From Bacilli bacterium (lineage in GTDB: Bacteria; Bacillota_I; Bacilli_A; RFN20; CAG-826), in contig JBGUOH010000003.1 of the NCBI GenBank assembly GCA_045117995.1, forward strand, positions 32,374-96,373: a DNA stretch of 64,000 bases. The letters run 5' to 3'. The notes below the pieces were generated by a model. That model was not told the origin of the DNA, ran no database searches, and saw only the letters and a program-made list of their open reading frames with translations. Every line of letters begins with the position of its first letter. The stretch's first letter is position 1. A program made the position numbers and the translations under genes. This document shows positions 12,295-27,807 of this stretch, in pieces.

Positions 12295-13448
12295 GAGATT
12301 TCGTATCAGAAAAAATTAAGAACATAAAACCTTCTGGTATCAGAAAGTTCTTTGATATTGCTAATAGTATTGAAGACTGTATCTCTTTAGGTGTGGGTGA
12401 ACCTGATTTTGATACGCCTTGGCATATTACAGAAGAAGGTATCTATTCTTTAGAACAAGGAAGAACTTTCTATACATCTAATCAAGGTTTACCGGAATTA
12501 AGAGAAGAAATCTCTAAATGGAATAAACGTAAATATAATCTTGATTATTCTAAAGAAGAAATCATTATCACCTGTGGTGGCTCAGAGGCTATTGATGTGG
12601 CCCTCAGAGCAACGATTAACCCAGGGGATGAGGTAATTATCCTTGAACCTAATTACGTCTGCTACGAGCCAGATATTTTACTTGCTGGTGGTGTACCTAT
12701 TAAGATTAAACTTAAAAATGAAAATGAGTTTAGATTAACTCCAATTGAATTAGAGAGCGTTATCACTCCTAAAACAAAGATCTTATTAATGAACTATCCT
12801 AATAACCCTACTGGGGCTATTATGGCTAAAGAAGATTTAGAAAAGATATCTAAGGTTATTATTAAACATGACCTCTTAGTAATATCTGATGAAATATATA
12901 GTGAATTAACATACGCTGGTAATCATTATTCTATCGGAGCATTACCAGGTATGAGAGATAGAACCATTACCATTAATGGCTTCTCTAAAACATATTCCAT
13001 GACTGGATGGAGATTAGGCTATGTCATGGGACCTAAAGAAATTATGGATCAAGTTAAAAAGATCCATCAATTCGTGGTCATGAGCGCACCTACGATATCT
13101 CAATATGCTGGATTAGAAGCATTAAGAAATGGTGATGAAGATATTGAAAGAATGAAGAAGGAATACGATAAGCGTAGAAAATATCTCTTAAAAGAATTTA
13201 ATAGATTATCACTTCCTTGCTTTGAACCTAAAGGAGCATTCTATATCTTCCCTGATATTAGAAAATACAATATGAGTAGCGAAGAGTTCGCCACTCAGTT
13301 ATTAAATAAAGAACATGTCGTTGTTGTTCCTGGAACAGCCTTTGGTGATAGTGGTGAAGGATTTATTAGAATATCCTATGCCTATTCATTAGATGCTTTA
13401 AAGGAAGCTATTAAGAGAATAGAGAGATTCCTTAAGAGTCTAAAGTAA
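12291..13448 (+). CDS. PLP-dependent aminotransferase class I/II (aspartate/aromatic aminotransferase-like)
   Basis: 'GFSKTYSMTGWRLGY' PLP-lysine motif region, 'NYPNNPTG' motif; 385 aa. Confidence 0.75.
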   Translation: MRDFVSEKIKNIKPSGIRKFFDIANSIEDCISLGVGEPDFDTPWHITEEGIYSLEQGRTFYTSNQGLPELREEISKWNKRKYNLDYSKEEIIITCGGSEAIDVALRATINPGDEVIILEPNYVCYEPDILLAGGVPIKIKLKNENEFRLTPIELESVITPKTKILLMNYPNNPTGAIMAKEDLEKISKVIIKHDLLVISDEIYSELTYAGNHYSIGALPGMRDRTITINGFSKTYSMTGWRLGYVMGPKEIMDQVKKIHQFVVMSAPTISQYAGLEALRNGDEDIERMKKEYDKRRKYLLKEFNRLSLPCFEPKGAFYIFPDIRKYNMSSEEFATQLLNKEHVVVVPGTAFGDSGEGFIRISYAYSLDALKEAIKRIERFLKSLK

Positions 13449-13474
13449 CAAAAACACTAACATTTTATTTAGAT

Positions 13475-13502
13475 ACCACCTCAATAAATGGGGTGGTTTT
13501 TT
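13475..13502 (+). terminator. rho-independent terminator after aminotransferase
   Basis: 'ccacc-tcaataaatgg-ggtgg' stem-loop followed by tttttt. Confidence 0.6.
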
Positions 13503-13584
13503 CTTAAATAAAATGTCTATAAAATATTGAATTCAATTTACTAAAATGGTAAAATGAATGTGCCACTAAAGAAAGGGGGCTCCA

Positions 13585-13938
13585 ATGAAGATAGTTTACA
13601 GCAATAAAAAGACCGAAAAACTTTGCGAAGATTATAGTAAGGCCATCAAAGATCTTGGCAAAGAAGTTGCTAATAAACTATCTGATTTACTTAACGCCAT
13701 TGAATCGTTCCCAACATTGCTTGATCTATTCTATTTACCACAATATAGATTGCATGCTTTGGGACAAAACAGACAATATCAATACTCATTCGTTATTCAT
13801 AAAGGATATAAGTGGCGATTGATTGTTTATCCACTTGATGAAGGTGGAAATATCCTTAAAGATAAGAGTAACGAAAAAGAGATGTTGTCTAAGGCAGTTA
13901 TGGTAGAGATATTGGAGGTGAGTGAGCATTATGATTGA
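13585..13938 (+). CDS. HigB-like toxin (RelE/ParE superfamily, plasmid killer family)
   Basis: 'RLHALGQNRQYQYSFVIHKGYKWRLIV' matches the HigB/killer-protein consensus (RLE.LKG.R.G.YSIRIN.QWRI.F); 117 aa; overlaps downstream antitoxin-like gene. Confidence 0.55.
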   Translation: MKIVYSNKKTEKLCEDYSKAIKDLGKEVANKLSDLLNAIESFPTLLDLFYLPQYRLHALGQNRQYQYSFVIHKGYKWRLIVYPLDEGGNILKDKSNEKEMLSKAVMVEILEVSEHYD

Positions 13939-15013
13939 GAGAAAGAGAATTGTCAGCCATCCTGGTGTATATGTTAAAGACGCTATTGAATCGTTAGGGC
14001 TGAGTCAAAGTGAATTTGCATATAGAACAGGATTATCAGTTAAAAACGTTTCAACACTTATTAATGGAGAAAGCAATATCACTTTTGATGTTGCTCTTAA
14101 ATTAGCGGGCTTTTTCCACAATAGTGTTGAAGGTTGGATTAATCTTCAAACTAAATACAATATCTTCTTAAATGAAGAAACAAAGCAAAAAGAATATGAA
14201 GAAGATTGGCTTATCGCAAAGCAATTCGATAAAACTTTTGTTCTTAATCTTCTACATATTCAAATCGATTCTAAGAACAAAGAATCCACAATTGATGAAC
14301 TAAGAAAACGATTTAAGGTTGTTAATTTACAAAATCTAAAAAGCCCAGATATGTATGCATTCTGCAGAACAAGTGTTTCGAAAGATATTAATGAAAAGAT
14401 GATTATCATGAGAAACGCATGGATTTCATTAGCTGAAGAAGAGGCAAGACAAATGGAATGCTCTGAGTTTGATAAGGACATGATTACTTCAAATGTTAAA
14501 TATCTCAGATCACTCACTCTTAAGGAACCAGATGAAATGAGCTCTGAATTAACAAACTTCTTAGCTAAGTGCGGTGTTAAACTCGTTATTCTTCCATTCC
14601 TTCCTGGAAGCAACATCAGTGGTGTTACCAAATGGGTCGCTAGCGAAAACTGCGTTATGGTAGCGGTTAATGACTGTGGTAAAGACGCTGATAAGATTTG
14701 GTTCTCCATATTCCACGAACTCGGCCACGCCATCAAGAATCATAAAAGACATCTAACCATTTCTCTTAGCAAGAACAATATAGAAGACGCTGAGGAGATT
14801 GAAGCAAATACATTTGCTAGAGATTCTTTATTAGATAAAAAAGACTTTGAAAGCTTCGTTAGAAAACAGGACTTCTCGATATCAAGCATTAAAGCCTTTG
14901 CTAGATCTCAAGATGTTGCTCCATTTGTGGTCATCGGCAGACTTCAAAAAGAGAAAATAATCGGTTGGGACAAATATCAAAACTATAAAACTAAATACGA
15001 AATTGGTTTTTAA
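13922..15013 (+). CDS. HigA-like HTH (XRE) antitoxin fused to ImmA/IrrE-family metallopeptidase domain
   Basis: N-terminal 'SHPGVYVKDAIESLGLSQSEFAYRTGLSVKNVSTLINGESNIT' (HigA/XRE HTH); C-terminal 'IFHELGHAIKNH' HExxH as in the COG2856 ImmA/IrrE family. Confidence 0.6.
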   Translation: MSIMIERKRIVSHPGVYVKDAIESLGLSQSEFAYRTGLSVKNVSTLINGESNITFDVALKLAGFFHNSVEGWINLQTKYNIFLNEETKQKEYEEDWLIAKQFDKTFVLNLLHIQIDSKNKESTIDELRKRFKVVNLQNLKSPDMYAFCRTSVSKDINEKMIIMRNAWISLAEEEARQMECSEFDKDMITSNVKYLRSLTLKEPDEMSSELTNFLAKCGVKLVILPFLPGSNISGVTKWVASENCVMVAVNDCGKDADKIWFSIFHELGHAIKNHKRHLTISLSKNNIEDAEEIEANTFARDSLLDKKDFESFVRKQDFSISSIKAFARSQDVAPFVVIGRLQKEKIIGWDKYQNYKTKYEIGF

Positions 15014-15196
15014 AGAAGATATCTAACTATTTTCTAGAATAATGATGAAAATCTTAAAAAACTCCGTTTAACTTCTAATAATTAGCCATTTATAATATTT
15101 TTTCTTGATAAAACCTCAATAAATTCGTAGACTAAACGAGTAGTGCGCATCAAATATTGAATTAGATGATGCTTTCGGAAGGAAACAATACAGCAG

Positions 15197-15694
15197 ATGA
15201 AGTATTTTCGACTAATCGTTTTCTCACTTATCTCAGTTATTTTTGTTTACCTTATACCTTTTTTAAATATTGTAGTCGTCAGTTCAAACGCTGAAGGCAT
15301 AATTGCTATTGTTAGTGTTTGCTCTGTTTTATCAAGTGCCGCTGCAGCTTCTTCTTGCTCAGCAAAGTTTTTAGGAAAAAAAGAGAATGGATGGCTTGCA
15401 GCCTTAATCATTCCGTCTCTTTCAATCTCTGTGTTTGTTTTCTGTGCTTGCTTGGCGTATCAATATTTCAATATATTGCTAATGCATGTTAGCTTTTTAA
15501 TTATCTTGACTGTCGTTGCCAATTTGCTAACTTTGGCTCTTTTAATCATTTCTTATTTCCTCGGATTTGATCCTACACCTGATGTAACAGCAGAAGAATC
15601 AAAAGAGGCTAAAGAGTTTGCTGAAAAAGCTAGTGGCGACGGTGAAACTAGTGGAGGTATCAATGTAACTAGAAAAGGAGGCGCCAAACAATGA
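15197..15694 (+). CDS. small multi-pass membrane protein, first gene of five-gene operon
   Basis: 165 aa, several hydrophobic segments, charged Gly-rich C-terminus; stop overlaps start of DGQHR gene (ATGA). Confidence 0.45.
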   Translation: MKYFRLIVFSLISVIFVYLIPFLNIVVVSSNAEGIIAIVSVCSVLSSAAAASSCSAKFLGKKENGWLAALIIPSLSISVFVFCACLAYQYFNILLMHVSFLIILTVVANLLTLALLIISYFLGFDPTPDVTAEESKEAKEFAEKASGDGETSGGINVTRKGGAKQ

Positions 15695-16809
15695 GTAAAA
15701 TAACAATTCCGGCATTTGAAATTGAACAACCAGTCGGTAAGTTTTACGTAGGAAAAGTTAAATACTATGATTTGATAGATTTGTGTTCTAAAGACCTTAG
15801 TAATATCAGTGGAACACAATATGACATATTCCAAAGAAATCTTGACTATACAAGGCTTCCTGCTCTTAAAAGATACATGGAATACTCAAGAGCCTCTTTT
15901 CCAAATGGTATAGTGCTTACTGCTAATTTACCATTCACTTATGAAAACGGAATGATTACTGTTGAAAAGAAAAAAGACGCGTTCTTTATTATAGATGGCC
16001 AACATCGTGTTGAAGCTTTGAAATATTATCATGGCAACAAAAAATTTGAAGTCTGTGTTGTTATTTTTGAACAAACAGACAAAGACATGAGAGCCGAGCT
16101 GTTTACAGTCATTAACAGCGAACAAAAGAAAGTGAATCCTACTGTTAAGTTAAACCTTAGAGGTAACGATATCGTAGATACTCCTGAAAAGGTTGTAAGG
16201 AAGATAGCGATTGCTTTGAATGAATCAAAGGAATCTCCTTTCTATCACCGCATTCGCTTTGGTGATGAATACACAAGAAGAGACTTAATTAAAATCTCCT
16301 TGGCTTCATTTGCTAAACCAATTATTTCCGCGATTTATTATCCAGATAATTTCTTCTCGCTTAAAGACAAATTAATTGAATCAAATAACGATAGAAGTGC
16401 TCTTGAAGAATTTGGATATGTTCATAAAAAATGTCTTTGGAATTACTACTTCAATAACAATGACGAAATTATATATTTAATTCTATTAAATTATTTTGGT
16501 GCGTTTGCAGATTTGTTTGAAAAAGATTGGAAATCACAAAAATCTATCTTGATGAAAACAACAGGTTTTAACGCAATGTTTATGTTGCTAAATGACTTGC
16601 TTAAGAATGCTAATGAGGAAGAAGAAAAAGACTTTAGCTATGAACATTTCTATAACCTCATTACACCATTAAAAATAATGGAAGGAACCTTCGTTCTTGA
16701 TAAATGGGGTGTAGGCCTTGCGGCATCGAGCAAATTATATAGAGAATTCACAAGAATACTTAACATGTCAGCTCAATATAAAGAGTTCGATGATTATAAC
16801 GAAGAATAA
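15691..16809 (+). CDS. DGQHR domain protein (DndB-like / ParB-like nuclease superfamily)
   Basis: Literal 'FFIIDGQHRVEAL' motif; 372 aa. Confidence 0.6.
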   Translation: MSKITIPAFEIEQPVGKFYVGKVKYYDLIDLCSKDLSNISGTQYDIFQRNLDYTRLPALKRYMEYSRASFPNGIVLTANLPFTYENGMITVEKKKDAFFIIDGQHRVEALKYYHGNKKFEVCVVIFEQTDKDMRAELFTVINSEQKKVNPTVKLNLRGNDIVDTPEKVVRKIAIALNESKESPFYHRIRFGDEYTRRDLIKISLASFAKPIISAIYYPDNFFSLKDKLIESNNDRSALEEFGYVHKKCLWNYYFNNNDEIIYLILLNYFGAFADLFEKDWKSQKSILMKTTGFNAMFMLLNDLLKNANEEEEKDFSYEHFYNLITPLKIMEGTFVLDKWGVGLAASSKLYREFTRILNMSAQYKEFDDYNEE

Positions 16810-16823
16810 TTAGTATTTAATCT

Positions 16824-17213
16824 ATGGAACCAATTAAAATAACTTATTGTTATCCCGATAGAACCAAAGAGGGACGAGAACCAGGAGAGTCTTCATTCAT
16901 AGTTTCTGATAGCAATATTGAAACCATTATTGGAGAATCAAATCCTATCGACTGTGTTTGTGACACTATGAAATTGGTAATCATGGAAAAATGTGATAGA
17001 AAGAAACTAAACGAACAAACTGTTTCTTTTTTCAGAGACTTAAATTCTTTCGCAGATTTTGTTAATAGAACCATCATCAACATATTCACGCAAGAGAATG
17101 AGCTTCGATATAGTTCGGTAGAAGTTAATAACATTTTGAAAGAAATAAATTCTGAGTCTGCCAAATTAGCAGATAGTTTTTTTGACGTCTATAATGATTG
17201 CAACAAGGAATAG
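16824..17213 (+). CDS. hypothetical small protein in DGQHR operon
   Basis: 129-aa ORF 14 nt downstream of DGQHR gene; no motif recognised. Confidence 0.3.
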   Translation: MEPIKITYCYPDRTKEGREPGESSFIVSDSNIETIIGESNPIDCVCDTMKLVIMEKCDRKKLNEQTVSFFRDLNSFADFVNRTIINIFTQENELRYSSVEVNNILKEINSESAKLADSFFDVYNDCNKE

Positions 17214-17784
17214 TATGATTGACCGCAAATACTTGTTAGAACTATATAATGCTAGAAAAAGCCAAGCCTGCGTAGCTTTTGCCTTTGACAATGATGGTAA
17301 AAGATATTTCGCTGTAAATGGTAAAGACACAAAATGCCCCGACCAGCTCGAACCCATTTTGAAAGTTTTTGGCGATTCTCCGATTTTTTGCGGTTACAAT
17401 TTTTCATTTACGGTGCTTAGACCATTTGTTAGTAAAAAAACATTAGATGACACATACAATCTTATTGATAATTTGGATTATTCTGGTTCTTCTGTTGGAT
17501 TCGATCTCTTATCTTTTAGATTATATAGGAAGTTCCCGATTAACTATTTATTTGATAATCGACATTTTTCATGCGCTGAAAAGAAAATTGTTGGTTATTG
17601 TGAGTTCATGGATATAACGATTGGGACTTTATATACAACTAAAACGCCGTGCTATTATTGCCTCCCTGTTATTGAATCTGTCGAGTTTCTTACGAAGAAA
17701 TTAGAAAAAAGAACAGTTAAGAAGAGCGGCAGTGCTTATTCTACAGGCGATGGATTGAGTTACTTTTTGTACAAAAGGTATTAA
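17182..17784 (+). CDS. putative zinc-dependent deaminase-fold protein (CDA-like C-A-E ... P-C-x-x-C)
   Basis: 'FSCAEKK' followed 24 aa later by 'TPCYYC', the spacing/signature of cytidine-deaminase-like zinc sites; true start may be ATG at 17215 (RBS aaggaa). Confidence 0.35.
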   Translation: MTSIMIATRNSMIDRKYLLELYNARKSQACVAFAFDNDGKRYFAVNGKDTKCPDQLEPILKVFGDSPIFCGYNFSFTVLRPFVSKKTLDDTYNLIDNLDYSGSSVGFDLLSFRLYRKFPINYLFDNRHFSCAEKKIVGYCEFMDITIGTLYTTKTPCYYCLPVIESVEFLTKKLEKRTVKKSGSAYSTGDGLSYFLYKRY

Positions 17785-17790
17785 TTTGTT

Positions 17791-19053
17791 ATGAGCTGGA
17801 TAAAATTTTCTAGAAAATTTAAGACAATCGTTGGAAACGATGTAATTACAATCTCAAATGGTTCTATCTTTTTCACCAGTGAAGACGGCGAGACACATTC
17901 TATATTTAGCAAGGATTTATATAATTCTATTATTGATGCTGCCGAAATAAAAAGTTTTAATGGTGACATATTGCTTAAGAAAGATACTGTCGAAATTAGA
18001 ATTGATGAAGTCAATGGTAGCGCTCGTGTGCCATTCCGTTATAATAATGAACGCATTAATCATTTTTTTGTAACCTCTGGCCAAACTTTTTTTGATTCTA
18101 TTCAAGTATCAAAAGCCTCTATTGAGTACTTAATTAGTTATTTTGAAAACAATGAGCCCAATAATGCAGTTATGGCGAAATATATGCTCGATAGGATTTT
18201 CGATCCAGATTCTGAGGAAGAAAACCCTAGTGTTAGAGAACCGATAAATATAGTAGGTAGAGTCCTATCTTACATTTTGAGCATTCCCCGTTGCGTTGTT
18301 GTCTCTAGAAAAAAGAATGGCCGCTCTTTGCAAATTAATACTATCTTAGAAAATTGTGAATCACTACTAATGTATATCGCGATGAATTACGGGTGTGCCA
18401 TAAAATTGGGAATTGATAAAAGCTTCTTAAAAAGAAGAGGTTTCTTGCCACGCATGACATACACAATGCCGATAATTAAATGCAAAGATGTATTTGTCGA
18501 AGAGAAATACATTCAGGCAACAGCTACAAATAGTTATGACACTAAGTTTCTGTTCTTTTATCAAATTTTGGAAAGAATCGCTCAAAAAATGGCTCCTTCT
18601 TTGTTCATTGCTGAAATCAGAGACGTCGTCTCTACAAGGTCAAGAGTGTCTGACTATGACAAGTTCGTTGACATGAAAAACAGAATAAATGGTGATAACG
18701 AACAACAATTGCTAGAAAAATTTCTGCGCTCAAAGGTTTTATTAAGCACACTAATGCCTATTATTCCCCCTTCTTTGATTACATATTTTGAGAATACTCT
18801 GCCACGTTTTATTGATCAAAAAATAGAAGCGAAAATCAATTTTAGTAATCAGGCTGATTATTCTAGAACGATGTCTAAAAGAATTTACTGGATTAGAAAC
18901 GCTATTGTTCACGCTAAAGAAGAGAATTTTAAGAAAAAAGCCAAAGAAACACCTTTTGATTGGGCCGTAGATGGCGAGCTGCTCATTCCTGAACTCGCGA
19001 TGCTGAAGTTGATAGTCGATTTTTCAATAAAAGTTTATTCTTCTCGAAAATAG
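17791..19053 (+). CDS. hypothetical protein with C-terminal HEPN-like R-x4-H motif
   Basis: 'YWIRNAIVHAKEE' (R-N-x-x-x-H) near C-terminus as in HEPN RNases; 420 aa; last gene of operon. Confidence 0.35.
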   Translation: MSWIKFSRKFKTIVGNDVITISNGSIFFTSEDGETHSIFSKDLYNSIIDAAEIKSFNGDILLKKDTVEIRIDEVNGSARVPFRYNNERINHFFVTSGQTFFDSIQVSKASIEYLISYFENNEPNNAVMAKYMLDRIFDPDSEEENPSVREPINIVGRVLSYILSIPRCVVVSRKKNGRSLQINTILENCESLLMYIAMNYGCAIKLGIDKSFLKRRGFLPRMTYTMPIIKCKDVFVEEKYIQATATNSYDTKFLFFYQILERIAQKMAPSLFIAEIRDVVSTRSRVSDYDKFVDMKNRINGDNEQQLLEKFLRSKVLLSTLMPIIPPSLITYFENTLPRFIDQKIEAKINFSNQADYSRTMSKRIYWIRNAIVHAKEENFKKKAKETPFDWAVDGELLIPELAMLKLIVDFSIKVYSSRK

Positions 19054-19246
19054 CGTGTAGAGCCAACTGGTTCTGAACACGAATATAAGATTTGGAAAGT
19101 TGAATATATCTCCTTGATATATCCTCTTTTTCTCGTCTCTTACAAATCTTTTGCGTTGTCACAATACTTAATTTATAATTAAAACAAATAACCAAACATA
19201 AGTCGTATTGACTATGTCCAGTCCATAATGGGGAGAGAACTTTTAT

Positions 19247-20419
19247 ATGTGTAGAAAGAAACAGAAGACAGATAATGTCCCAATGACCAACTACGTGGTT
19301 TCAGGCAACCATGAAGATGGCAAGTTAGTAGAATTACCATCTAACGTTGAAAAGATCAGATTAGAAACTGATAACAAGAATTTATTCTATCGTGCCTACG
19401 GTGCTTTTAAGAATCCAGATACCAAACTCATTTTATCCGCTCCTGGATGTGAAATGATGATTCTTAGAGATGGTGTGGCTAGTGAACCTTTAGGAAATGG
19501 TTCCTATCCAGCCTTTGGTGAAGATGATTTTGAATATAAGAAAAAATGCTTATTTGGAAAACCAAAGAAACAAGTTAAAGGTAACGTCATGTTTGACGTC
19601 ATCGTCTTTAACCAAAACCTTTCTTATGAAGGTTTCTGGGGTATTCCAAATCCAATCCCATATCGTGATCCAGAAACAGATATCCCAGTGGATATCAGAG
19701 GTCGTGGTAAATACGACATTAGAATTGCTGATGTAAAGAAATTCTTCGAAAGAGTCGTCGGTAGTAACCGTGACTTTAAGATGGAAGACTTATTAGAAAG
19801 AATTAATGATCATGTTGTCCATATTCTTAAAGGCGAATTAACCAAAGTCATTCATGACCATCACTTAGGATATATTGATTTACCATTACATGAAGCAGAA
19901 GTAGCAGAGGCTATTCAACCACTTGTGTCTGAAATGTTGAATGAACAATATGGTTTATTCTGTCCATTGTTCTCCGTTGAACAATTCTTCATCGATGAAG
20001 AACAACGTGCAGAAATCGAAGCCTTCCTTAAAGCTAATAGAGATGAAAAGAAATTCAAAGCCGACGCTAAAGAAATTGCTGCCGAACTTGAAAGACTTGA
20101 TGATAAAGAATGGGAAAGAACAAAGTTCCTTATCGCTTTAAGAAGAGAAGACGAATCCAAGTATTTAGAAGTTATCAAACTCTTAGGTTATCCAGATAAC
20201 CCATCATACGCTCAAGAAGCTAAGAAAGCCGCTGCAGAAGCAGCCAAAGACGTTGCTAAGAGATTCTGTCCAAAGTGTGGTGCAGAAGTCGTTAGAGGCG
20301 AACCATTCTGTCCACAATGTGGTGAAGCTTTAGCGCCAATCGAAAGAAAATGCCCATATTGTGGCAAGACCATCAAGAGTAAAGGCAAATACTGCCCACA
20401 TTGTGGTAGGGAGCTTTAG
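19247..20419 (+). CDS. SPFH/Band-7 (PF13421-type, B. subtilis YdjI-like) protein with C-terminal tandem zinc ribbons
   Basis: 'WGIPNPIPYRDPETDIPVDIRGRGKYDIRIADVKKFFERVVGS' closely matches the YdjI-family core; C-terminus has 'CPKCG...CPQCG...CPYCG...CPHCG'. Confidence 0.65.
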   Translation: MCRKKQKTDNVPMTNYVVSGNHEDGKLVELPSNVEKIRLETDNKNLFYRAYGAFKNPDTKLILSAPGCEMMILRDGVASEPLGNGSYPAFGEDDFEYKKKCLFGKPKKQVKGNVMFDVIVFNQNLSYEGFWGIPNPIPYRDPETDIPVDIRGRGKYDIRIADVKKFFERVVGSNRDFKMEDLLERINDHVVHILKGELTKVIHDHHLGYIDLPLHEAEVAEAIQPLVSEMLNEQYGLFCPLFSVEQFFIDEEQRAEIEAFLKANRDEKKFKADAKEIAAELERLDDKEWERTKFLIALRREDESKYLEVIKLLGYPDNPSYAQEAKKAAAEAAKDVAKRFCPKCGAEVVRGEPFCPQCGEALAPIERKCPYCGKTIKSKGKYCPHCGREL

Positions 20420-20422
20420 TTT

Positions 20423-21160
20423 ATGCGTTGCCCAAAATGTGGCGCTAACGTGCCAGACGGTAAGAGCAAATGCCCTTACTGCTTTTCACCATTAAACGCA
20501 TATTCTGAACCAGTTCCTAATCGTGCTAATTATGCATCTGTGAGTCCTGCTGCTCAAAGTCAAAGACCATCTCTCCAAGCAAGTGTTCCTGATATTTATG
20601 ACAAAAATGTCCGTGGAATAGTTATCGTCAACAAACCAGAGGGTACTGGTACAGGATGTATAATTTCTAAGGATGGCCTTATCTTAACTAATGCGCATAT
20701 GGCATTTAGTAAGAAAGAAAAAGCTTTTTACTCCGCTGTGGAAGTTATCATTGATAATGTTTCATACACTGGTCAACTAATAAATGCTAATGTCCCACAT
20801 GGGGATAATGACGTTGCTTTGCTCAAAGTTGATGGTACATTTGATCATATTTTAAAGTTTGGTGATTCATCAACCCTTAGAAACGGTGATGAAGTCATTG
20901 CTATTGGTAATTCATTGGGCTTGGGTATGAGCGTCGCTCGCGGCATTGTCTCTGACACACGAAAGAGTGTCGAGGGTTCAATATTGATTACAAGTGACGT
21001 GGCCACTAACCATGGTAACTCAGGCGGTCCATTATTTAATACACGTGGTGAAGTTATCGCCCTTTGTGTTTCCGGTATAGACGGCGCTAAAGGCATGAAT
21101 TTTTTCATTCCAATCAATCGCGTTCTCGATATTTTAGCAGCATGGGGGTATAAATTCTAA
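20423..21160 (+). CDS. zinc-ribbon + trypsin-like (S1/HtrA-like) serine protease
   Basis: N-terminal 'CPKCG...CPYC'; protease motifs 'LTNAHM' (His), 'DVALLKV' (Asp), 'GNSGGPLFN' (Ser); 245 aa; start 4 nt after the SPFH-gene stop. Confidence 0.65.
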   Translation: MRCPKCGANVPDGKSKCPYCFSPLNAYSEPVPNRANYASVSPAAQSQRPSLQASVPDIYDKNVRGIVIVNKPEGTGTGCIISKDGLILTNAHMAFSKKEKAFYSAVEVIIDNVSYTGQLINANVPHGDNDVALLKVDGTFDHILKFGDSSTLRNGDEVIAIGNSLGLGMSVARGIVSDTRKSVEGSILITSDVATNHGNSGGPLFNTRGEVIALCVSGIDGAKGMNFFIPINRVLDILAAWGYKF

Positions 21161-24100
21161 TGCCAGAAATTCTCATCAAGTGTCCGCACTGTGGTGGTGA
21201 GAAGTTAGTTGATCAGAATGAAGAATTTGTAAAATGCCAGTACTGTCATAAAACATTCCCTTTGAGGGAATCAAAAACTGGCCTTAACGCTCAATTACAA
21301 AGTCAAATTAATGACGCTATTAATAAGAGAAACAAGTTTGAATTTAATGAAGCAACAATCATTCTAGAAGATCTTGTTTCTACTTACCCTGATGTCGCGG
21401 AGATATATTTCCAATTACTCCTTTCGGATTATGGTATTTCTTATGTAAGTGAAGATAGTAACATTACAGAGAAGCCAGTAATTTCTAGTGTCCAAAAGGA
21501 ATCAATATTCTCTAAAGAGTATTACCATAAACTAGAATCTCTTTTAAGTGAGTTGCCAAGCACACTTAAAAACTATAAAGAGCGATTAGAGGAGATTGAA
21601 AAACTCCGTGAAGAATCACTCAAGACAATGAAAGAAATCGAACCTTTCGATATCTTTATTTGTTATAAAAGAACAACAGGTGACAGTGGTTTAACATTTG
21701 ATAGTAAAACCGCTGATAAGTTATATAGAAAGTTTTCTGAATGGGGACTTAATGTCTTCTATGCTGAAGAAACTCTCTATCGTAAATACGCTGGTAAAGC
21801 CTTCGAACCAGTTATTTGTAGTGCTTTATTAAGCGCTAAGTTATTTGTCTTGGTGTGTGCCACACCAGATCATAAAGAATATCTCTTAGCCCCTTGGGTT
21901 AAAAACGAATGGGCTAGATTTAAAAAGAGAGTGGAAAACGAAGTGGACGTTAAATTACGTTTACTCCCTGTCTTTGATAATGGCTTCACTCCAGAAAAAT
22001 TACCACGTGAATTAGAAGGCATTGAAGGCATTAAATTGGACGATGAATTTGATAACAACGTCTATAGCCTTATTAGTTCTTTAATTCCAAAGGAAAAGAA
22101 GAGCAAATTTAATGAAATTAAAGTCCAAGCCAATAAAGTTGGTTCTTTATCCGTTAAGAAAGAAGAAATCGTTGCTAGAAAGTTTACAGGCTTTAAAGAA
22201 AAAGAATTAAACAATTTAGAAAAGACTGACTTCAATATGGCGGTTGCTGATATGAAGATTAACAATAACAGCAAATACAAAGCCGCCTATAAGAAGTTAT
22301 GTCGTTTAACAGAAACTAATAAGTTTAACTTTGAAGCTAACTTAGCAAAGCTAAAATGTAACTTTAAGATTCCTAATGATGATAGTTTGGTTAACACATC
22401 ATTATGGAGAGTTGATGACATCAACCGTATGAATAATGACTTCCTCGCTTTAATGGAAGCGGGTGGTGAAGACTGCGCTAGAGTGAGAAAAGCCATGGTG
22501 CAGATGCTTAAGAAGTCATTCAATGATAATCCAAACAAATTCGCTAGTGAGTTAAAGAAAGAAGAAAGTACATTCTTAACCATTGCTAAAACATTTGAAG
22601 ATAGAAATGAAATGTTTGATTATGCAGTGGAGTTTGAAAAACCATACTTTGATTTACTCAATAACCGCGCTCAACACTCTAAACTTAAAGACGATGATAT
22701 TTTAAACATCGCTAATAAGTTATTTAGACGTATCTACTCTAACTATGAAGAAAAGGGTGCTCATCAAATCTTTAACTTATACCTTAGATCTTTCAAAATC
22801 TTATCCGCAGGCAATAAGAAAGAAAATAAGCACCTCGTGGATGAGTTTATTGACCTAGCGTTAGAGATTAACAAGTTAGATGTTGACTGCCTATGGTATC
22901 GATTCTGCTTCGATCTAGACTGCTTAGGGGCTAATGAATTTACCCTTGCTAAGAAGCTAAAGAAAGAAAACTTCGTGGAGTTCGATATCAAGAAAAAGAC
23001 TATCGATGATAAGCTTAAAAAAGCTAATCTCTATTACTTCATGATTAAGGCTATTGAAAGTGGCTATAAAATGGACTTCACTAGTCCATCATGTAATAAC
23101 AACTATTTCAATACCATCTTAAAAGCCACATGCATCATGGTTAATAAGAAAAAGAATAAGGAAATCACTAAAAAGATATTCACTCTTCTTGCTTCTTTAA
23201 CCGGCAGTGGTTCCACGAGTGACGCTAATACAATTAAGTTATTAATGACCATCGGTGATCGTTTATTACTCGAAAAGAGATATAAAGAAGCCAAACGTTA
23301 TTATGAAGAAATACTAAATATTGATGAAACTGATTGTGAAGCAAGATGGGGTATCGTTAAATGCGATATTAAGAAACCATCTAACTACAGCGTTTTATTC
23401 TATAGAAAATCACTTAATGATGTCCCATCATTTAGAATGCTTATCGCTGTTCACGATGAAAAACATCCTGACGAAGTAGACCATTATTTAGCGTTCTATC
23501 AAGCTATTGAAGCCATCAAGGGCGAACGCAGCAAAACCAATAGGCAACTCAAAAAAGCTTTTAAGAATAATCATCAGAGATTGATGAAAATAGATTTCCC
23601 ATATGATACACCTGTGAAAGATATCATCATCTCTATTGGTAATGGTACATTAGCTCAACAAGCCTTAAAGCCTAAGAGAGCGCCAAAACAATCTTCACAA
23701 GGCACATATAATAATCCAACTCACTATTCTTTCGCTAAAGAAAGAGTGAGCCTGGTATTCAATATCTTGTTCATATTAACCGCATTTGTGTCAGTGATTT
23801 TGCTAAAACCAGAATCTTCTTTCGTAGCGATATTTGCTTTAGCAATCATCGCAGCGATTATGTCGAGGGCCGGGTATGGTCATTTAGCGACAGGTAGAAG
23901 TCCATATAAGCCATTAATCATTGTCTTTGGCGTATTGTCGTTCATACCATATATCGTGGTTATTAGTATTCTATTTACCTCTAATGCAAATGCGATCAAT
24001 GACATAACTAAAACACAAGCGTTTGTTTACTTTGTGGTTGGTTTAGTATTCGCATTCATTTACTTCCTACTCACAATTATTAGAAAAACAAAACCAAGTT

Positions 24101-24351
24101 CTCAAGATATGGATAATTCCAATGTCTTCACTTATTACCTATTGAAGTTTATGGCGATTACCGGTTCTGTATTAGGTGGTTTCTATGCTTCAATGTCCAT
24201 TGGTGATACTGGGACGATATTTGGTATCACATTAGATACTTCTAATGTCTTCGTTAAATTCATGGTAACAGCTGGTCATCTTTACTTAATACCTGTTCTC
24301 TTTGTTTTAACGAATTTGATTTTAAGACTTATTAGGGGGCGTGGATTATGA
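21160..24351 (+). CDS. zinc-ribbon - TIR domain - long helical region - C-terminal multi-pass membrane domain protein
   Basis: N-terminal 'CPHCGG...CQYC'; TIR-like 'FDIFICYKR...NVFYAEE...LLAPWVKNEWARF'; last ~300 aa strongly hydrophobic (several TM helices); 1063 aa; overlaps flanking genes. Confidence 0.55.
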   Translation: MPEILIKCPHCGGEKLVDQNEEFVKCQYCHKTFPLRESKTGLNAQLQSQINDAINKRNKFEFNEATIILEDLVSTYPDVAEIYFQLLLSDYGISYVSEDSNITEKPVISSVQKESIFSKEYYHKLESLLSELPSTLKNYKERLEEIEKLREESLKTMKEIEPFDIFICYKRTTGDSGLTFDSKTADKLYRKFSEWGLNVFYAEETLYRKYAGKAFEPVICSALLSAKLFVLVCATPDHKEYLLAPWVKNEWARFKKRVENEVDVKLRLLPVFDNGFTPEKLPRELEGIEGIKLDDEFDNNVYSLISSLIPKEKKSKFNEIKVQANKVGSLSVKKEEIVARKFTGFKEKELNNLEKTDFNMAVADMKINNNSKYKAAYKKLCRLTETNKFNFEANLAKLKCNFKIPNDDSLVNTSLWRVDDINRMNNDFLALMEAGGEDCARVRKAMVQMLKKSFNDNPNKFASELKKEESTFLTIAKTFEDRNEMFDYAVEFEKPYFDLLNNRAQHSKLKDDDILNIANKLFRRIYSNYEEKGAHQIFNLYLRSFKILSAGNKKENKHLVDEFIDLALEINKLDVDCLWYRFCFDLDCLGANEFTLAKKLKKENFVEFDIKKKTIDDKLKKANLYYFMIKAIESGYKMDFTSPSCNNNYFNTILKATCIMVNKKKNKEITKKIFTLLASLTGSGSTSDANTIKLLMTIGDRLLLEKRYKEAKRYYEEILNIDETDCEARWGIVKCDIKKPSNYSVLFYRKSLNDVPSFRMLIAVHDEKHPDEVDHYLAFYQAIEAIKGERSKTNRQLKKAFKNNHQRLMKIDFPYDTPVKDIIISIGNGTLAQQALKPKRAPKQSSQGTYNNPTHYSFAKERVSLVFNILFILTAFVSVILLKPESSFVAIFALAIIAAIMSRAGYGHLATGRSPYKPLIIVFGVLSFIPYIVVISILFTSNANAINDITKTQAFVYFVVGLVFAFIYFLLTIIRKTKPSSQDMDNSNVFTYYLLKFMAITGSVLGGFYASMSIGDTGTIFGITLDTSNVFVKFMVTAGHLYLIPVLFVLTNLILRLIRGRGL

Positions 24352-25526
24352 GAAAAAGATCATTAATATTATTAGCGCTCAGCGCTATTGCTCTTACATC
24401 ATGCTCCTATAATCCATTCAATGAATTCACAGGCATTAACTTTACTTTTGGTAGTGGAATTAATGTCCTACAAAACCACAAGTATCTATTCTGGGAAGAC
24501 AATGATAAGTGTTCTGGCTATGAAATTTATCTTTACAACGACACTTCATCAAGTGACGAACCAATTCTAAGAACGTCAGATCATTTCGTTGAAGTTCAAG
24601 ATGGATGGGTAGGTAATAAGATTAAAGTTGTTGGCTACACATACGACATGAAAAACATTACCAGTCTTTTTGATATCAAAAAGAAAACCGTTGTCTCATC
24701 AAGTAAAATCAAAGTTACTACTAATAAAGTTCCTTCTTCAAGTGGTACCTCATTGATCGTTAATAATTCATATTTGCAAGAGCAATTAGGAACTAAGGGG
24801 TATGGCGCTATCAAGATTCCTAATACTGTCACGTATGTTGAAATTAGAGATATAACAAATAATTACCATCCTACTTTCATTTTTGATGCAAGAGATGATG
24901 GTGATGTTGTGAAGATTGAACTTCGTAGTTCAACTCTAGTTGGCACTAACGATTTATTTGGCCCATCTGTTTTCCGTTATAATGGAACAAATAAGGATGT
25001 GAATTTCTATATTAGAGTCTGTGGCAAAAATACAATAACTGCGCCTAATTTATCAAGTGATACTGGATCCGCGATTGATTTACCAAGAGTTACTTTCTAC
25101 GATTATTACGATTATTCAGAAGATAATAAAGCAGAACTAACTGTTACTGGTGGCGTTTCTGCTAATAAGAATATTAGCTCTGGTTATGCAATTAAGGCTG
25201 ATAGGGTAGTCAGTTATCTTTCTCCATCAGTGATTAAACTAATTGGTGGAGCGGGCTTTGCCGCTATCACAAATGGTGATAACGGTGGTACTGGTCAAAT
25301 GCCTATTGAACCACATGCTCAAATCTACGCTACCCAAAAGAACGCTATTGGCATACAAGCCGGTAATGGTGGCAAAGGCGGCAGTGTTGGTAGAGGTGGT
25401 AAGGCCTATGGCTATAAGTATCTTTCTGAAATTACATATAAGAAGTACGCTAGTTCAATCTACCGTATCAAAGAAGCTTCAGTGGGTACAGGTGGCATTG
25501 CTAGCGGCACTTATATTAGTAACTAA
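24348..25526 (+). CDS. secreted lipoprotein with Gly-rich C-terminus
   Basis: Signal peptide and lipobox 'ALTSC'; 'GNGGKGGSVGRGGKAYGY' near C-terminus; start overlaps stop of the TIR-membrane gene. Confidence 0.5.
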   Translation: MRKRSLILLALSAIALTSCSYNPFNEFTGINFTFGSGINVLQNHKYLFWEDNDKCSGYEIYLYNDTSSSDEPILRTSDHFVEVQDGWVGNKIKVVGYTYDMKNITSLFDIKKKTVVSSSKIKVTTNKVPSSSGTSLIVNNSYLQEQLGTKGYGAIKIPNTVTYVEIRDITNNYHPTFIFDARDDGDVVKIELRSSTLVGTNDLFGPSVFRYNGTNKDVNFYIRVCGKNTITAPNLSSDTGSAIDLPRVTFYDYYDYSEDNKAELTVTGGVSANKNISSGYAIKADRVVSYLSPSVIKLIGGAGFAAITNGDNGGTGQMPIEPHAQIYATQKNAIGIQAGNGGKGGSVGRGGKAYGYKYLSEITYKKYASSIYRIKEASVGTGGIASGTYISN

Positions 25527-25549
25527 GAATTAAACGCTTTATCAGACGA

Positions 25550-25577
25550 AAAGCATCAATAACATTGGTGCTTTTTA
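25550..25577 (+). terminator. putative rho-independent terminator after lipoprotein gene
   Basis: 'gcatcaat-aac-attggtgc' stem (one G-U pair) followed by ttttt. Confidence 0.45.
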
Positions 25578-25700
25578 TATATTTAAAAAATTGGCCAAAT
25601 AACATTTAAGCGTGGAAAAACAGACATAAATAGTTAAAATCGTTAAAAAAAGTAACACTTTTATATATTTATATGTATAATATTAGAGCAGGTAACAATT

Positions 25701-27059
25701 ATGTTTAGATTAAATTCAATTAAATTCCATAACTTCAGAAACATCCTTGATAGTGAAATTAACTTGAACACTAAAGAACTTAGCACACCATTAGGTGGCG
25801 CTATTGCGGGTATCTACGGTACTAATGGTTCTTCCAAGTCTAGCGTTGGATACGCCTTGTGCTATTTGTACAAACAAGCTTTTGATTTGTCACCAGCATT
25901 TTTTCATAATTTTGATAATGACTTTGGTATCTCAGATGACTATGTTTCTTTAGAATACGATTTCTCGTTTGCCCACGAAGACTATGAAGGTTTGATTATT
26001 AGATTTGTTTGGAAAAAGAACTCTGAGACAAAAAAGGTCTATATTTGTGAAGAGTCCATAACTTTTAAAACGAATAAAAAAGGAAAGCCATATTCATACA
26101 CAGTTAGTAAAACTGATAATAGTCTCGAATATCTAATTCCAGATAACGATGCCAAACGACTTTGCGATTTTTTCTCAGTCGATGAAAAGATGCTTTATAG
26201 ATTGTATAGTACCTCTGTTGATGGATCATATTCAATGCTCTTAAATCTCAAAAGCTTGCAAGCCATCATCGCTTATTTGCAAGAAAGAAAACCAGCTGAT
26301 TTTGAATTAAATAATAACTTTTCTTATCTATCTTTTTTTGCTCATAGTCTTTTCTCCTCGACTGCATTCATTATGCCTGATTCTTATGGCGCTAGTATCA
26401 CTAATAATTTATTCCTTTCATATGGTGATAAAGAAACGCCTTTATCCGCTTTAAACAAAGATCAAACGGGCACAATTTTTGCCACTGAGCAACAATTAAA
26501 AGCAATTGAAAGTATTGTGGCAACAAGCAACAAATTCATGAAAAAAGTTGTTTCTGATTTCGAAGTGACTATCGATAAAGAATTGCAAGAAACAACCGCT
26601 GACGGTATTAAAAAATACCGTGTTCAATTCATGTCCAACAAAAAAGAAGGAAGCTTCTTATTTGAAAACGAGAGTGAAGGTATTAAGAGATTGTTTAACA
26701 TTGCTGTCTCTCTCGCTAGATGTATGAATGAACCAGACTTCATCGCGTTCATTGATGAGTTTGATGAAGGCGTTTTTGAAGTGCTTTATGGTGAACTTAT
26801 TAATGGCTTGAACAAACAATGTATGGGCCAGCTCATTTTTACGTCTCATAATTTAAGACCATTAGAAGTATTGAATTATAAGAACTTTATTTTCTCAACA
26901 TTAAATCCAAAGAATAGATTTGTGACATTAAAGGGTGTTAAACCACAAAACAACCTTAGAGATATCTATATTAGAAAAATTATGTATGGTGGAAACGATG
27001 AGTTATCTTCATCTATTGATGACGATGACATCATCGAAGGTTTGATTGATGCCAAGTGA
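25701..27059 (+). CDS. AAA_21/ABC-type ATPase, paralog of 7901..9277 (degenerate Walker A)
   Basis: 'GIYGTNGSSKSS' (Walker A with Gly-to-Ser), 'IAFIDEFDEGVFE' Walker B, 'FTSHNLRPLEVLNYKNF...NNLRDIYI' C-terminus clearly homologous to 'FNSHNMRILEKVDYKNF...NNLRDMYY' of the first ATPase. Confidence 0.6.
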   Translation: MFRLNSIKFHNFRNILDSEINLNTKELSTPLGGAIAGIYGTNGSSKSSVGYALCYLYKQAFDLSPAFFHNFDNDFGISDDYVSLEYDFSFAHEDYEGLIIRFVWKKNSETKKVYICEESITFKTNKKGKPYSYTVSKTDNSLEYLIPDNDAKRLCDFFSVDEKMLYRLYSTSVDGSYSMLLNLKSLQAIIAYLQERKPADFELNNNFSYLSFFAHSLFSSTAFIMPDSYGASITNNLFLSYGDKETPLSALNKDQTGTIFATEQQLKAIESIVATSNKFMKKVVSDFEVTIDKELQETTADGIKKYRVQFMSNKKEGSFLFENESEGIKRLFNIAVSLARCMNEPDFIAFIDEFDEGVFEVLYGELINGLNKQCMGQLIFTSHNLRPLEVLNYKNFIFSTLNPKNRFVTLKGVKPQNNLRDIYIRKIMYGGNDELSSSIDDDDIIEGLIDAK

Positions 27060-27807
27060 GGAAATTACAGGATCTTTTTCCACTCCCCTTATTGTGGTTA
27101 TAGGGGAGGGACCAAGCGATATACAATATTTAGAGCCGCCTTTAAAAGCCTATTACTCTAAGAAATATGGCGTGAAGTGTAAACTTATCACAATCAGTGA
27201 TGTGACAAGTGATCCTAATTACACAGATGCACAGTTAATGGATCTCCTTCCTGCATTTATTGAAGGAGAACTAAAAAGACCTATCAATAAAATTGATAAA
27301 GAAATAGCTGCCAATATTAAAGAAATAATTCAGATTATCGATATAGATGAAGCGTTTATTGATGATAGTTTAATTAGAGAAGATAAGACAAAAGATAAGT
27401 TCTTCTACACAAGAAACGGGATTGAGTATAAAAACATTGAGACTGTCAAAGAGAGAAATCGAAGAAAACAAAATAGAATAGCAACGCTCAGAACCACAGA
27501 AACAGTTAACGTCTTTGGATACGATATTCCATACACGTTATTATTCTTTTCCATCAACATTGATGATTTTCATTATCCGAACGCATTAAATTGGACACAA
27601 GAAAAAAAGAATCTACAAGCAGCAATGTTTGCTAGAAGAAACTATTATTCGAAAGATGATGACGCTAAGATTGAAACTTTTAAAGCGTTATTTGATAAAA
27701 ACCCAACAGATTTTCCGAATAATATCCAGGATGCATGGGACTATGTTTCTAGAGACAACAACTGCTTAAAAACTTGTTCGAATGTAATTTATAAAATTAA
27801 AGAGTAA
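27046..27807 (+). CDS. TOPRIM/DUF4435-like small protein, paralog of 7201..7893
   Basis: 'VVIGEGPSD' and 'IIQIIDIDEAFIDDSLI' versus 'LVEGATD' and 'IIQIIDTDGCFLSDSLI' in the first copy; 14-nt overlap with upstream ATPase. Confidence 0.55.
   Translation: MMPSEEITGSFSTPLIVVIGEGPSDIQYLEPPLKAYYSKKYGVKCKLITISDVTSDPNYTDAQLMDLLPAFIEGELKRPINKIDKEIAANIKEIIQIIDIDEAFIDDSLIREDKTKDKFFYTRNGIEYKNIETVKERNRRKQNRIATLRTTETVNVFGYDIPYTLLFFSINIDDFHYPNALNWTQEKKNLQAAMFARRNYYSKDDDAKIETFKALFDKNPTDFPNNIQDAWDYVSRDNNCLKTCSNVIYKIKE

Follow-up and report, generated by a model that had tools for sequence, protein, structure and literature searches.

A membrane-bound TIR protein encoded with a YdjI-type SPFH protein, a serine protease and a lipoprotein in a Bacilli operon

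What would a bacterium do with a TIR domain that sits on a polytopic membrane protein and is encoded beside an SPFH protein of the YdjI type? The question is raised by a stretch of 64,000 nucleotides from an uncultured gut Bacilli bacterium (GTDB RFN20, CAG-826; contig JBGUOH010000003.1, positions 32,374 to 96,373 of the forward strand), referred to here as the window. Four adjacent genes at positions 19247-25526 of the window encode an SPFH protein, a serine protease, a giant TIR protein and a lipoprotein. An earlier annotation made from the letters of the DNA, the original prediction, took them for a candidate membrane-anchored TIR defence or stress system lying in a defence island. The reading that we favour, to which we assign a probability of about 0.45, is that the four products would form an SPFH-organised envelope-surveillance assembly whose TIR domain cleaves NAD+ upon membrane perturbation.

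A single operon under purifying selection

The four open reading frames (ORFs) lie exactly at the coordinates first assigned to them.

19247-20419, + strand: gene 1, soluble YdjI-type SPFH protein, 390 amino acids (Pfam Band_7_1, DZR and Zn_Ribbon_1)
20423-21160, + strand: gene 2, cytoplasmic HtrA-like serine protease, 245 amino acids (Trypsin_2 match)
21160-24351, + strand: gene 3, membrane TIR protein, 1063 amino acids (alignment, models, Foldseek and hhalign)
24348-25526, + strand: gene 4, predicted lipoprotein, 392 amino acids (lipobox; Gly-rich C-terminal part)

The junctions read TAG-ttt-ATG between genes 1 and 2, TAATG between genes 2 and 3, and ATGA between genes 3 and 4, which confirms the spacing and overlap expected of the translational coupling that had been proposed. 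A 193-nucleotide AT-rich spacer precedes gene 1, and signals for expression, read from the sequence at the 5' end, frame the genes.

19151-19179, + strand: putative promoter, with TTGCGT (19151-19156), a 17-nucleotide spacer and a perfect TATAAT (19174-19179)
About 10 nucleotides 5' of the gene 1 ATG, + strand: ribosome-binding site GGGGAG
25548-25586, + strand: terminator-like hairpin with a 13-bp stem followed by a T-run, at the operon end 3' of gene 4
25613-25681, + strand: promoter-like sites for the next gene, 3' of the hairpin

The putative promoter was missing from the output of a consensus scan because its −35 hexamer, TTGCGT, fits the consensus at only 3/6 positions. Given the coupled junctions, the one terminator and the candidate promoter, the four genes form a single operon. 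Minus-strand ORFs within it are short (87-98 amino acids) and nested in well-supported genes.

The operon genes are real and under purifying selection, with ratios of nonsynonymous to synonymous divergence (dN/dS) of 0.02 for the TIR protein, 0.13 for the protease and 0.15 for the lipoprotein in comparison with a close strain, L094 (loci of relatives are given L numbers). Chance adjacency of the four genes was considered and rejected because of the coupling, the purifying selection and the conservation of the arrangement across 33-99% identity. Against the same strain (8377-9114 in L094), the protease gene has a synonymous divergence (dS) of 0.88 and 79% protein identity, compared with a dS of about 0.13 and 96-99% protein identity for the TIR and lipoprotein genes that flank it. 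This difference in dS marks a recombined segment in the protease gene; a recombination tract probably replaced the protease and perhaps also the 3' end of the SPFH gene.

Relative to a more distant strain, L005, identity is 91% for the SPFH protein, 92% for residues 1-330 of the TIR protein, 80% for its TPR region (331-850), 63% for the protease, 49% for the transmembrane (TM) region of the TIR protein (851-end) and 41% for the lipoprotein. Divergence thus grows from the cytoplasmic toward the TM and surface-exposed parts, and the lipoprotein is the fastest-diverging component.

A TIR domain with an intact catalytic-type glutamate

The giant protein encoded by gene 3 is composed of five regions, all on the + strand.

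Residues 1-36, 21160-21267, + strand: zinc-ribbon (CPHCG-x14-CQYC)
Residues 40-160, 21277-21639, + strand: helical and beta-hairpin adaptor, from the AlphaFold model
Residues 163-310, 21646-22089, + strand: TIR domain, with the catalytic-type E250 at 21907-21909
Residues 350-836, 22207-23667, + strand: TPR-type superhelix, a confident all-alpha region that is preceded by a disordered linker and followed by a second linker
Residues 858-1059, 23731-24336, + strand: six TM helices, from a Kyte-Doolittle scan and the full-length model

The TIR domain is confirmed, as is its catalytic-type Glu250. An AlphaFold model of residues 1-330 (pLDDT 88, pTM 0.78) was matched by Foldseek, at a probability of 1.0, to TIR-STING (6wt6), C. 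elegans TIR-1 (8p2m), SPARTA TIR-APAZ (8isy/8spo), TRIF and plant NLR TIRs, with the SEFIR domain of IL-17R also among the fold matches. Pfam TIR_2 (PF13676) is precomputed on orthologues P0004, P0009 and P0012-P0015, and members of the wider family score 39-50 bits with it. Searching the PDB with the TIR region as a single sequence gave no match, and a profile search returned weak SARM1 matches in a shifted register. The register was settled by hhalign, which sets W246-V-K-N-E250 on the WVHKE of SARM1, a motif whose glutamate we take to be the catalytic E642. Invariant in 14 full-length relatives (25-82% identity) are C8, C11, C26, C29, FICYKR and W246-V-K-N-E250-W251, and the same residues, WVKNEW included, are invariant across 40 diverse family members. 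The claim of a clear TIR domain therefore holds, and the check it called for, on the catalytic glutamate, found E250 present, invariant and aligned on that of SARM1. Going by this motif, the TIR domain of gene 3 is predicted to cleave NAD+.

The architecture was foreseen in outline, with the N-terminal zinc-ribbon, the TIR domain and the membrane C-terminus all in place; the membrane region spans about 200 residues (858-1059), not about 300. The long middle part is helical, as had been noted, and can be refined to a TPR-type superhelix of about 480 amino acids, which in the full-length model (pLDDT 81) resembles the TPRs of OGT, CTPR and IFIT5 in Foldseek comparisons. That model places the zinc-ribbon at residues 3-34, the adaptor at 44-159, the TIR domain at 165-308, the all-alpha region at 352-836 and the TM helices at 858-1059.

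The SPFH protein, the protease and the lipoprotein

The three smaller products contain the following features.

Gene 1, residues 130-257, 19634-20017, + strand: Band_7_1 core, followed by an Ala/Lys-rich linker
Gene 1, residues 339-390, 20261-20416, + strand: two C-terminal zinc-ribbons (four CPxCG knuckles)
Gene 2, residues 3-20, 20429-20482, + strand: N-terminal DZR-type zinc-ribbon
Gene 2, residues 76-214, 20648-21064, + strand: trypsin-fold domain
Gene 2, H92 (20696), D130 (20810) and S200 in GNSGGP (21020), + strand: catalytic triad
Gene 4, 24348-24404, + strand: signal peptide and lipobox LTS-C19 (MRKRSLILLALSAIALTS-C19)

Gene 1 was assigned to the PF13421-type, YdjI-like SPFH proteins, and this is borne out by a Band_7_1 (PF13421) score well above the cutoff (55.7 bits vs 24, E 6.8e-15, over profile positions 82-203 only), by C-terminal DZR (40.6) and Zn_Ribbon_1 (45.4) matches, and by a Kyte-Doolittle scan that showed no hydrophobic or TM segment. 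Orthologues also match Band_7_1 and, at 47-95% identity, hold the same operon position. The four zinc ribbons ascribed to its tail are four CPxCG knuckles that make up two ribbons.

Gene 2 is, as annotated, a trypsin-fold protease with an N-terminal zinc-ribbon. Trypsin_2 matches at 94.6 bits (E 1.2e-26), the Pfam zinc-ribbon match being weak, and the NCBIfam model degP_htrA_DO matches the catalytic domain only (E 4.7e-35; score 121 vs a cutoff of 416). The protein falls far under the NCBIfam DegP/HtrA cutoffs because the PDZ domain is absent; neither Pfam nor NCBIfam gave a PDZ match, and no signal peptide or TM segment was found. The N-terminal zinc-ribbon argues for a cytoplasmic location. 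Gene 2 thus shares the trypsin-fold domain and triad with the HtrA/DegP family but differs from it in having no PDZ domain and in not being extracytoplasmic. C3, C6, C17, C20, H92, D130 and S200 are unchanged in seven orthologues down to 33% identity, a set that includes the distant operon versions L092 and L093. It had been suggested that every cytoplasmic component carries the same zinc-ribbon. The DZR type is indeed common to the SPFH protein and the protease; the ribbon of the TIR protein is longer and different.

The identification of gene 4 as a lipoprotein is upheld by its signal peptide and an L-x-x-C lipobox that is kept, judged from the motif, in four orthologues (L094, L005, L003 and L091). 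It has no match in Pfam, NCBIfam, PADLOC or the PDB, and the nine homologues found are all from the window's clade.

One variant of a very large family in gut Firmicutes

The window operon belongs, as one variant, to a very large family. With residues 1-330 of gene 3 as query, at least 4,123 clusters (50% identity) are detected at E ≤ 1e-10, and the stricter limit of E ≤ 1e-30 leaves 962; the zinc-ribbon–adaptor–TIR module is almost always N-terminal among them. The family is present in at least 588 species-representative genomes, a lower bound, the window's own clade not being among the matches listed. Most hosts among these matches belong to the Lachnospiraceae, Oscillospiraceae, Ruminococcus or other Clostridia; Erysipelotrichaceae and Anaeroplasmatales are also represented.

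The pairing of the TIR gene with an SPFH gene is part of this wider pattern, a gene linkage that extends across hundreds of species. In 47 of 79 species-genome loci the TIR gene has near it, always on its own strand, a Band_7_1 gene whose C-terminus is Cys-rich; of the 28 loci that have 4 kb or more of flanking sequence on each side, 19 (about two thirds) contain one. Conversely, a TIR gene is present in all five loci of SPFH-DZR homologues that were examined. Because Band_7_1 genes are rare in genomes, we infer that this linkage is far beyond chance. A second recurrent partner is a protein of about 233 amino acids with four TM segments and a helical tail, encoded in 42 of the 79 loci and together with the SPFH gene in 40. 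The protease and lipoprotein are confined to the window's clade, apart from the zinc-ribbon–trypsin protease reappearing in the distant L092 and L093 operons.

The four-TM family has no Pfam match, has a conserved tail that ends in ...DRNxKCKLxK, and occupies the position that the protease has in the window (examples are L014 12009-12707, L008 4562-5263 and L034 7271-7969). The six-TM region of gene 3 was considered as a fused copy of this partner and rejected, with an hhalign probability of 2%.

Among the 79 loci, one to five TIR paralogues stand in tandem, and their C-termini are hypervariable. Arrays of three to five zinc-ribbon–TIR paralogues occur in Lachnospiraceae and Christensenellales (L020 6268-14933, L071 3644-12288, L051 and L075). 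Many paralogues in such arrays are tail-anchored and about 550 amino acids long, and no SPFH gene lies in the flanks retrieved for the L020, L071 and L051 arrays.

In the wider family the TIR domain (about 158-281) is followed by TPRs (about 316-435) and a TM segment. Among 241 sampled members, 99 have one TM segment and then at least 100 amino acids; in the nine examined in detail, PASTA, an RCC1 propeller, BspA-type LRR (LRR_5) or DUF6273 follows the membrane segment. These members thereby resemble Toll-like receptors, which likewise combine an ectodomain, a single TM segment and a cytoplasmic TIR domain, and gene 3 shares the WVxxE catalytic motif with SARM1. Unlike Toll-like receptors, these members have an inverted polarity, the TIR domain lying at the N-terminus and the ectodomain at the C-terminus. 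Nothing indicates that the architecture as a whole shares a common origin with theirs, and the window's own gene 3 has six TM helices and no ectodomain. On this analogy the family could be a large unrecognised class of TM TIR receptors in gut Firmicutes that follow Toll-like-receptor logic, SPFH-organised, with an ectodomain (LRR, PASTA or RCC1) or polytopic sensor outside and zinc-ribbon, TIR and TPR inside. Such receptors would turn envelope damage or phage contact into NAD+-derived signalling or suicide, would be coupled to an ESCRT-III/Vps4-like module in some lineages, and would include the window's protease-and-lipoprotein operon as one specialised branch. We regard this broader proposal as doubtful.

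The ectodomains also lend themselves to an account in which the TIR domain is not catalytic. Family members would be surface receptors or adhesin-like scaffolds, engaged in cell-cell or host-surface contacts, and the TIR and TPR regions would serve assembly only. BspA-type LRR, RCC1 and DUF6273 are surface-type domains of Firmicutes, many animal TIRs are pure scaffolds, and TRIF and the IL-17R SEFIR domain are among the fold matches. This account is very unlikely in view of the WxxxE motif, which is invariant in more than 50 diverse members, and of the alignment of E250 on the catalytic glutamate of SARM1. Scaffolding TIRs generally lack the catalytic glutamate, and gene 3 of the window is without an ectodomain in its model.

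A stable operon beside a variable slot

In the lineage of the window, the operon is flanked by an AsnC-aminotransferase pair and an aspartate aminotransferase, an arrangement that is fixed in L094 (99% TIR identity) and L005 (77%). Two neighbouring segments within this frame lie outside the system.

13585-19053, + strand: variable slot upstream, with an HTH-M78 gene, a DndB/DGQHR-like gene and four uncharacterised genes
25701-27807, + strand: AbiLi-like ATPase (452 amino acids; PADLOC AbiLi E 2.9e-21, Pfam AAA_21) and a 253-amino-acid partner

The slot holds other genes in each relative: an AAA_15/AAA_21 gene, a 350-amino-acid protein and an HD protein in L094 (2487-6804), and a 537-amino-acid protein, a reverse transcriptase (RT) and a Lactamase_B protein in L005 (1157-5933). 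The AbiLi-like pair is present in L094-L096 and absent from L005. Because these neighbours are swapped between strains while the operon stays, it is stably placed next to a hypervariable slot and is not movable island cargo. A related SPFH operon follows directly after the same AsnC-aminotransferase anchor in L092. Elsewhere, the SPFH–protease–TIR triad lies between ftsZ/surE and rnhB/mutS2 in L001 (33-35% TIR identity), where gene 4 is lacking, and between a metallo-beta-lactamase-fold gene and efp, with gyrB also nearby, in L003 (46% TIR identity); it is also found in L091.

To the wider family the same picture applies. Of 148 genes flanking 54 family loci, about 8 (about 5%) match PADLOC models at E ≤ 1e-5, a crude count with no matched control; the matches are mostly generic (IscS-like DndA/SspA, the system's own AAA, HTH), and the commonest Pfam families in the flanks are metabolic or regulatory. 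The family occurs in 3 of 2.9 million viral contigs (IMG/VR), and tblastn found no member in plasmid or phage records. The flank test removes the guilt-by-association argument and leaves room for immunity itself.

These results bear on the idea of a dedicated abortive-infection system that travels as mobile defence-island cargo and was acquired horizontally with its DGQHR and AbiL neighbours. The idea draws on the DndB/DGQHR-like and AbiLi-like genes next to the operon, on other defence-type genes (RT, AAA_15 with HD) in the same slot of relatives, on the recombined protease segment (dS 0.88 vs about 0.13), and on the L093 and L008 versions, which adjoin Mob_Pre and a recombinase and resolvases, respectively. 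We consider it unlikely, given an operon whose aminotransferase flanks are unchanged in the strains with 99% and 77% identity, the related operon at the same anchor in L092, the housekeeping neighbours in L001 and L003, the near absence from viral, plasmid and phage records, and flanks that are not enriched for PADLOC models. The location in a defence island, as first proposed, is not sustained. Its flank labels stood in part: the DndB/DGQHR-like gene and the ATPase, which is AbiLi-like, were found, and "deaminase", "HEPN" and "TOPRIM" were without Pfam support.

Relation to known systems

PADLOC-DB v2, which covers Thoeris, CBASS, Pycsar, Lamassu, RT-protease and other systems, gave no match at E ≤ 0.01 for the TIR protein or the lipoprotein. 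The SPFH protein had a 15-bit partial match only, and the matches of the protease were confined to the protease domains of RT-Protease_XI and LmuA. As anticipated, then, no model describes the combination, and in the literature we found no description of an SPFH/YdjI-type protein combined with a TIR domain; the one paper in which both terms occur has Band-7/SPFH in its reference list alone. The remark in the original prediction that the architecture was not recognised as described is supported in so far as no PADLOC model or publication was found; the operon is a local variant of a huge family, however, and no isolated oddity. Its building blocks (TIR effector, SPFH scaffold, HtrA-fold protease and TPR sensor) are known, and the combination is apparently undescribed.

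The closest relation of gene 1 is to the PspA-YdjGHI system of B. subtilis. YdjI is soluble, and its recruitment to the membrane requires YdjG and YdjH, where it in turn recruits PspA (PMC8581546). A phage-shock-protein (PSP) survey describes YdjI as a band-7 and zinc-ribbon protein coupled to YdjH and to a zinc-ribbon-bearing membrane protein, YdjG (PMC11237479). Both systems have a soluble Band_7_1 SPFH protein with a C-terminal zinc finger, encoded with a membrane protein that bears one or more N-terminal zinc-ribbons. Relatives of the window operon also carry genes resembling the ESCRT-III/PspA superfamily. The likeness is one of architecture: the window operon has no pspA, no YdjG-type protein (two zinc-ribbons, an NTF2-like domain and a TM segment) and no YdjH-type TPM protein, its zinc-ribbon membrane partner has a TIR domain and a TPR superhelix instead, and it adds a zinc-ribbon serine protease and a lipoprotein, with no sigma-W context known.

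Those relatives are L006, L007, L009, L092 and L093, where the SPFH-DZR gene is accompanied by genes for a protein of about 110 amino acids, two proteins of about 190-210 amino acids and a classical AAA ATPase that weakly resembles Vps4_C. One of the 190-210-amino-acid proteins has a sub-threshold Pfam Snf7 match of near full length (E about 1e-4) in two independent members; a PDB profile search for an ESCRT-III assignment of these proteins found nothing. As a lead, an ESCRT-III/Vps4-like module may be tied to SPFH and TIR proteins in these relatives. The L092 and L093 operons add the zinc-ribbon–trypsin protease and BrxL-like or Hint-domain proteins, followed by zinc-ribbon–TIR–TPR proteins, and the N-terminal zinc-ribbon may serve as a shared docking tag for swappable components. 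With the queries used, the window has no Snf7-like, AAA, 110-amino-acid or four-TM component; a PspA hidden Markov model was not run window-wide.

The pair of about 190-210 amino acids is paralogous and coiled-coil, and the Snf7-like/AAA operons lie at L006 3037-5363, L007 140-1867, L092 4391-7503 and L093 8063-11651. Inside the SPFH-TIR operons, the BrxL-like (BREX Lon-type) ATPase of L092 is at 8261-9676, and the Hint-domain protein of L093, which has an N-terminal zinc-ribbon and TM segments, is at 12719-14422.

These parallels make room for a variant of the YdjGHI type that serves envelope stress or membrane homeostasis outside immunity and in which phage plays no part. The SPFH scaffold and its zinc-ribbon membrane partners would organise membrane repair or cell-wall synthesis, and the TIR domain would be a regulatory enzyme that consumes NAD+ or produces a signal, or a nucleotide sensor. 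Band_7_1 plus zinc-ribbon is the architecture of YdjI, part of the PspA envelope-stress system; Snf7-like and Vps4-like AAA genes stand in related operons; some family members have PASTA or other ectodomains that face the wall; and purifying selection is very strong. Housekeeping neighbours and a stable locus are also what such a module would show, and the low flank enrichment, the rarity on mobile elements and the vertical inheritance mean that a housekeeping stress module fits at least as well as immunity. We know of no TIR domain, however, with an established role in bacterial envelope homeostasis, and to our knowledge the characterised prokaryotic TIRs with this catalytic glutamate act in immunity or conflict. 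Up to five tandem paralogues with hypervariable C-termini, together with a BrxL-like gene, would be unusual for housekeeping, the queries run on the window detected no PspA- or Snf7-like gene, and a TIR-type enzyme, that of BcTir/Tpr, acts in phage resistance. On balance, we see the homeostasis variant as possible, though somewhat improbable.

In BcTir/Tpr of Bacillus cereus, a TIR-type NADase and a TPR protein form a dyad that gives phage resistance, the TPR protein modulating the enzyme (preprint 10.1101/2023.05.26.542521). Gene 3 likewise combines TIR and TPR in a Firmicute. Unlike the window operon, the dyad is a soluble two-gene system of a different sequence family, with no SPFH protein, zinc-ribbon, protease or membrane anchor. 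The other immune TIRs, those of Thoeris ThsB, TIR-STING, SPARTA TIR-APAZ and CBASS/Pycsar, share with gene 3 the TIR fold and the catalytic-type glutamate. The best structural matches of gene 3 are the TIRs of TIR-STING, SARM1/TIR-1 and SPARTA, and oligomerisation would be the mechanism expected to activate it. The window operon differs from them in having no ThsA, STING, Argonaute, cyclase or SAVED partner, in placing the TIR domain on a polytopic membrane protein with a zinc-ribbon adaptor and an SPFH link, and in being chromosomal and largely non-mobile.

Stomatin and STOPP form an SPFH–protease pair. HflK/C–FtsH is another, and SPFH proteins form large closed oligomers. In both pairs, as in the window, an SPFH gene adjoins a protease gene, the SPFH protein presumably controlling the protease or being processed by it (stomatin-STOPP/NfeD and HflK/C–FtsH). 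The functional relation to the window would be an analogy: its protease is a soluble trypsin/HtrA-fold enzyme with a zinc-ribbon, not FtsH or a ClpP-like STOPP, and its SPFH protein is a Band_7_1 protein without a TM segment. The literature also describes a bacterial Vps4-like AAA+ ATPase whose partner has "TPRs and 6TM" (PMC11237479), and TPRs plus six TM helices are what make up the C-terminal half of gene 3. A Vps4-like AAA gene adjoins such proteins in L006, L007, L092 and L093. This likeness is by description, which has no TIR domain, SPFH protein or protease, and the window operon has no AAA gene.

Proposed function

In the envelope-surveillance reading that we favour, the soluble YdjI-type SPFH protein would oligomerise, and the zinc-ribbon-bearing TIR protein would bring it to the membrane in the way that YdjG and YdjH recruit YdjI. 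The C-terminal ribbons of the SPFH protein and the N-terminal ribbons of the protease and TIR protein, which are conserved, would dock and hold the enzymes latent on the scaffold. Either the six-TM domain, together with the lipoprotein at the surface, or the TPR superhelix in the cytoplasm might sense perturbation of the envelope or membrane, with phage adsorption or DNA entry as the leading candidate trigger. The TIR domains, with their intact catalytic-type glutamate, would then cluster and cleave NAD+, leading to its depletion or to a signal nucleotide. By analogy with HflK/C–FtsH and stomatin-STOPP, the protease might activate or reset the assembly by cutting the SPFH tail or the linker of the TIR protein. 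Abortive infection by NAD+ depletion is a plausible outcome, though one that we infer entirely.

A role in defence is favoured by the intact catalytic-type TIR and the protease partner, by tandem TIR arrays of up to five paralogues with hypervariable outer domains, by the BrxL-like gene in the L092 operon, by the defence-type genes in the neighbouring slot, and by the precedent of the BcTir/Tpr dyad, whose anti-phage action has experimental support in a preprint. Several findings weigh against it. The operon looks vertically inherited in its lineage, few family flanks match PADLOC, and the family is scarce in viral contigs and absent from the plasmid and phage records searched. No PADLOC model fits the TIR, SPFH or lipoprotein components, and the TIR_2 score of gene 3 itself, 27.5 bits, is marginally under the Pfam cutoff of 28. 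Extrapolation from relatives is moreover indirect, because the window has neither the four-TM partner nor the Snf7/AAA genes.

If the surveillance reading is correct, this would be a new and very widespread TIR-based system, represented by over 4,000 protein clusters and by 588 or more species genomes. The family is concentrated in gut and rumen Clostridia and Bacilli, groups that experimental screens for defence have sampled poorly. It would also give the first functional link of SPFH/flotillin-type scaffolds to TIR NADase signalling and bear on the long-standing question of what YdjI-type bacterial SPFH proteins organise. The layout of the wider family, with ectodomain, TM segment and cytoplasmic TIR domain, provides a bacterial analogue of Toll-like receptors that can be put to a direct test. 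With four genes the window's version is compact, and E250 of the TIR domain and S200 of the protease, the predicted active sites, are obvious mutation targets. Family size, receptor-like layout and the SPFH link make it a worthwhile experimental target.

Neighbouring genes and minor observations

The variable slot that separates the AsnC-aminotransferase pair from the SPFH operon looks like an integration hotspot for defence genes. At its edge, a 363-amino-acid ORF (13922-15013) fuses HTH_3 (19-68) to an IrrE/ImmA-type M78 peptidase (246-317), and a 117-amino-acid ORF with a faint HigB-like match precedes it. The 253-amino-acid partner of the AbiLi-like ATPase has no Pfam match. Two of the three IMG/VR-labelled contigs with a family member, L088 (5403-10448) and L089 (7797-12967), have the SPFH gene adjoining the TIR gene, and L088 also encodes the four-TM protein. 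In two to three family loci, classical Band_7 (PF01145) and NfeD pairs adjoin the SPFH-TIR cassette, so that two SPFH systems stand side by side.

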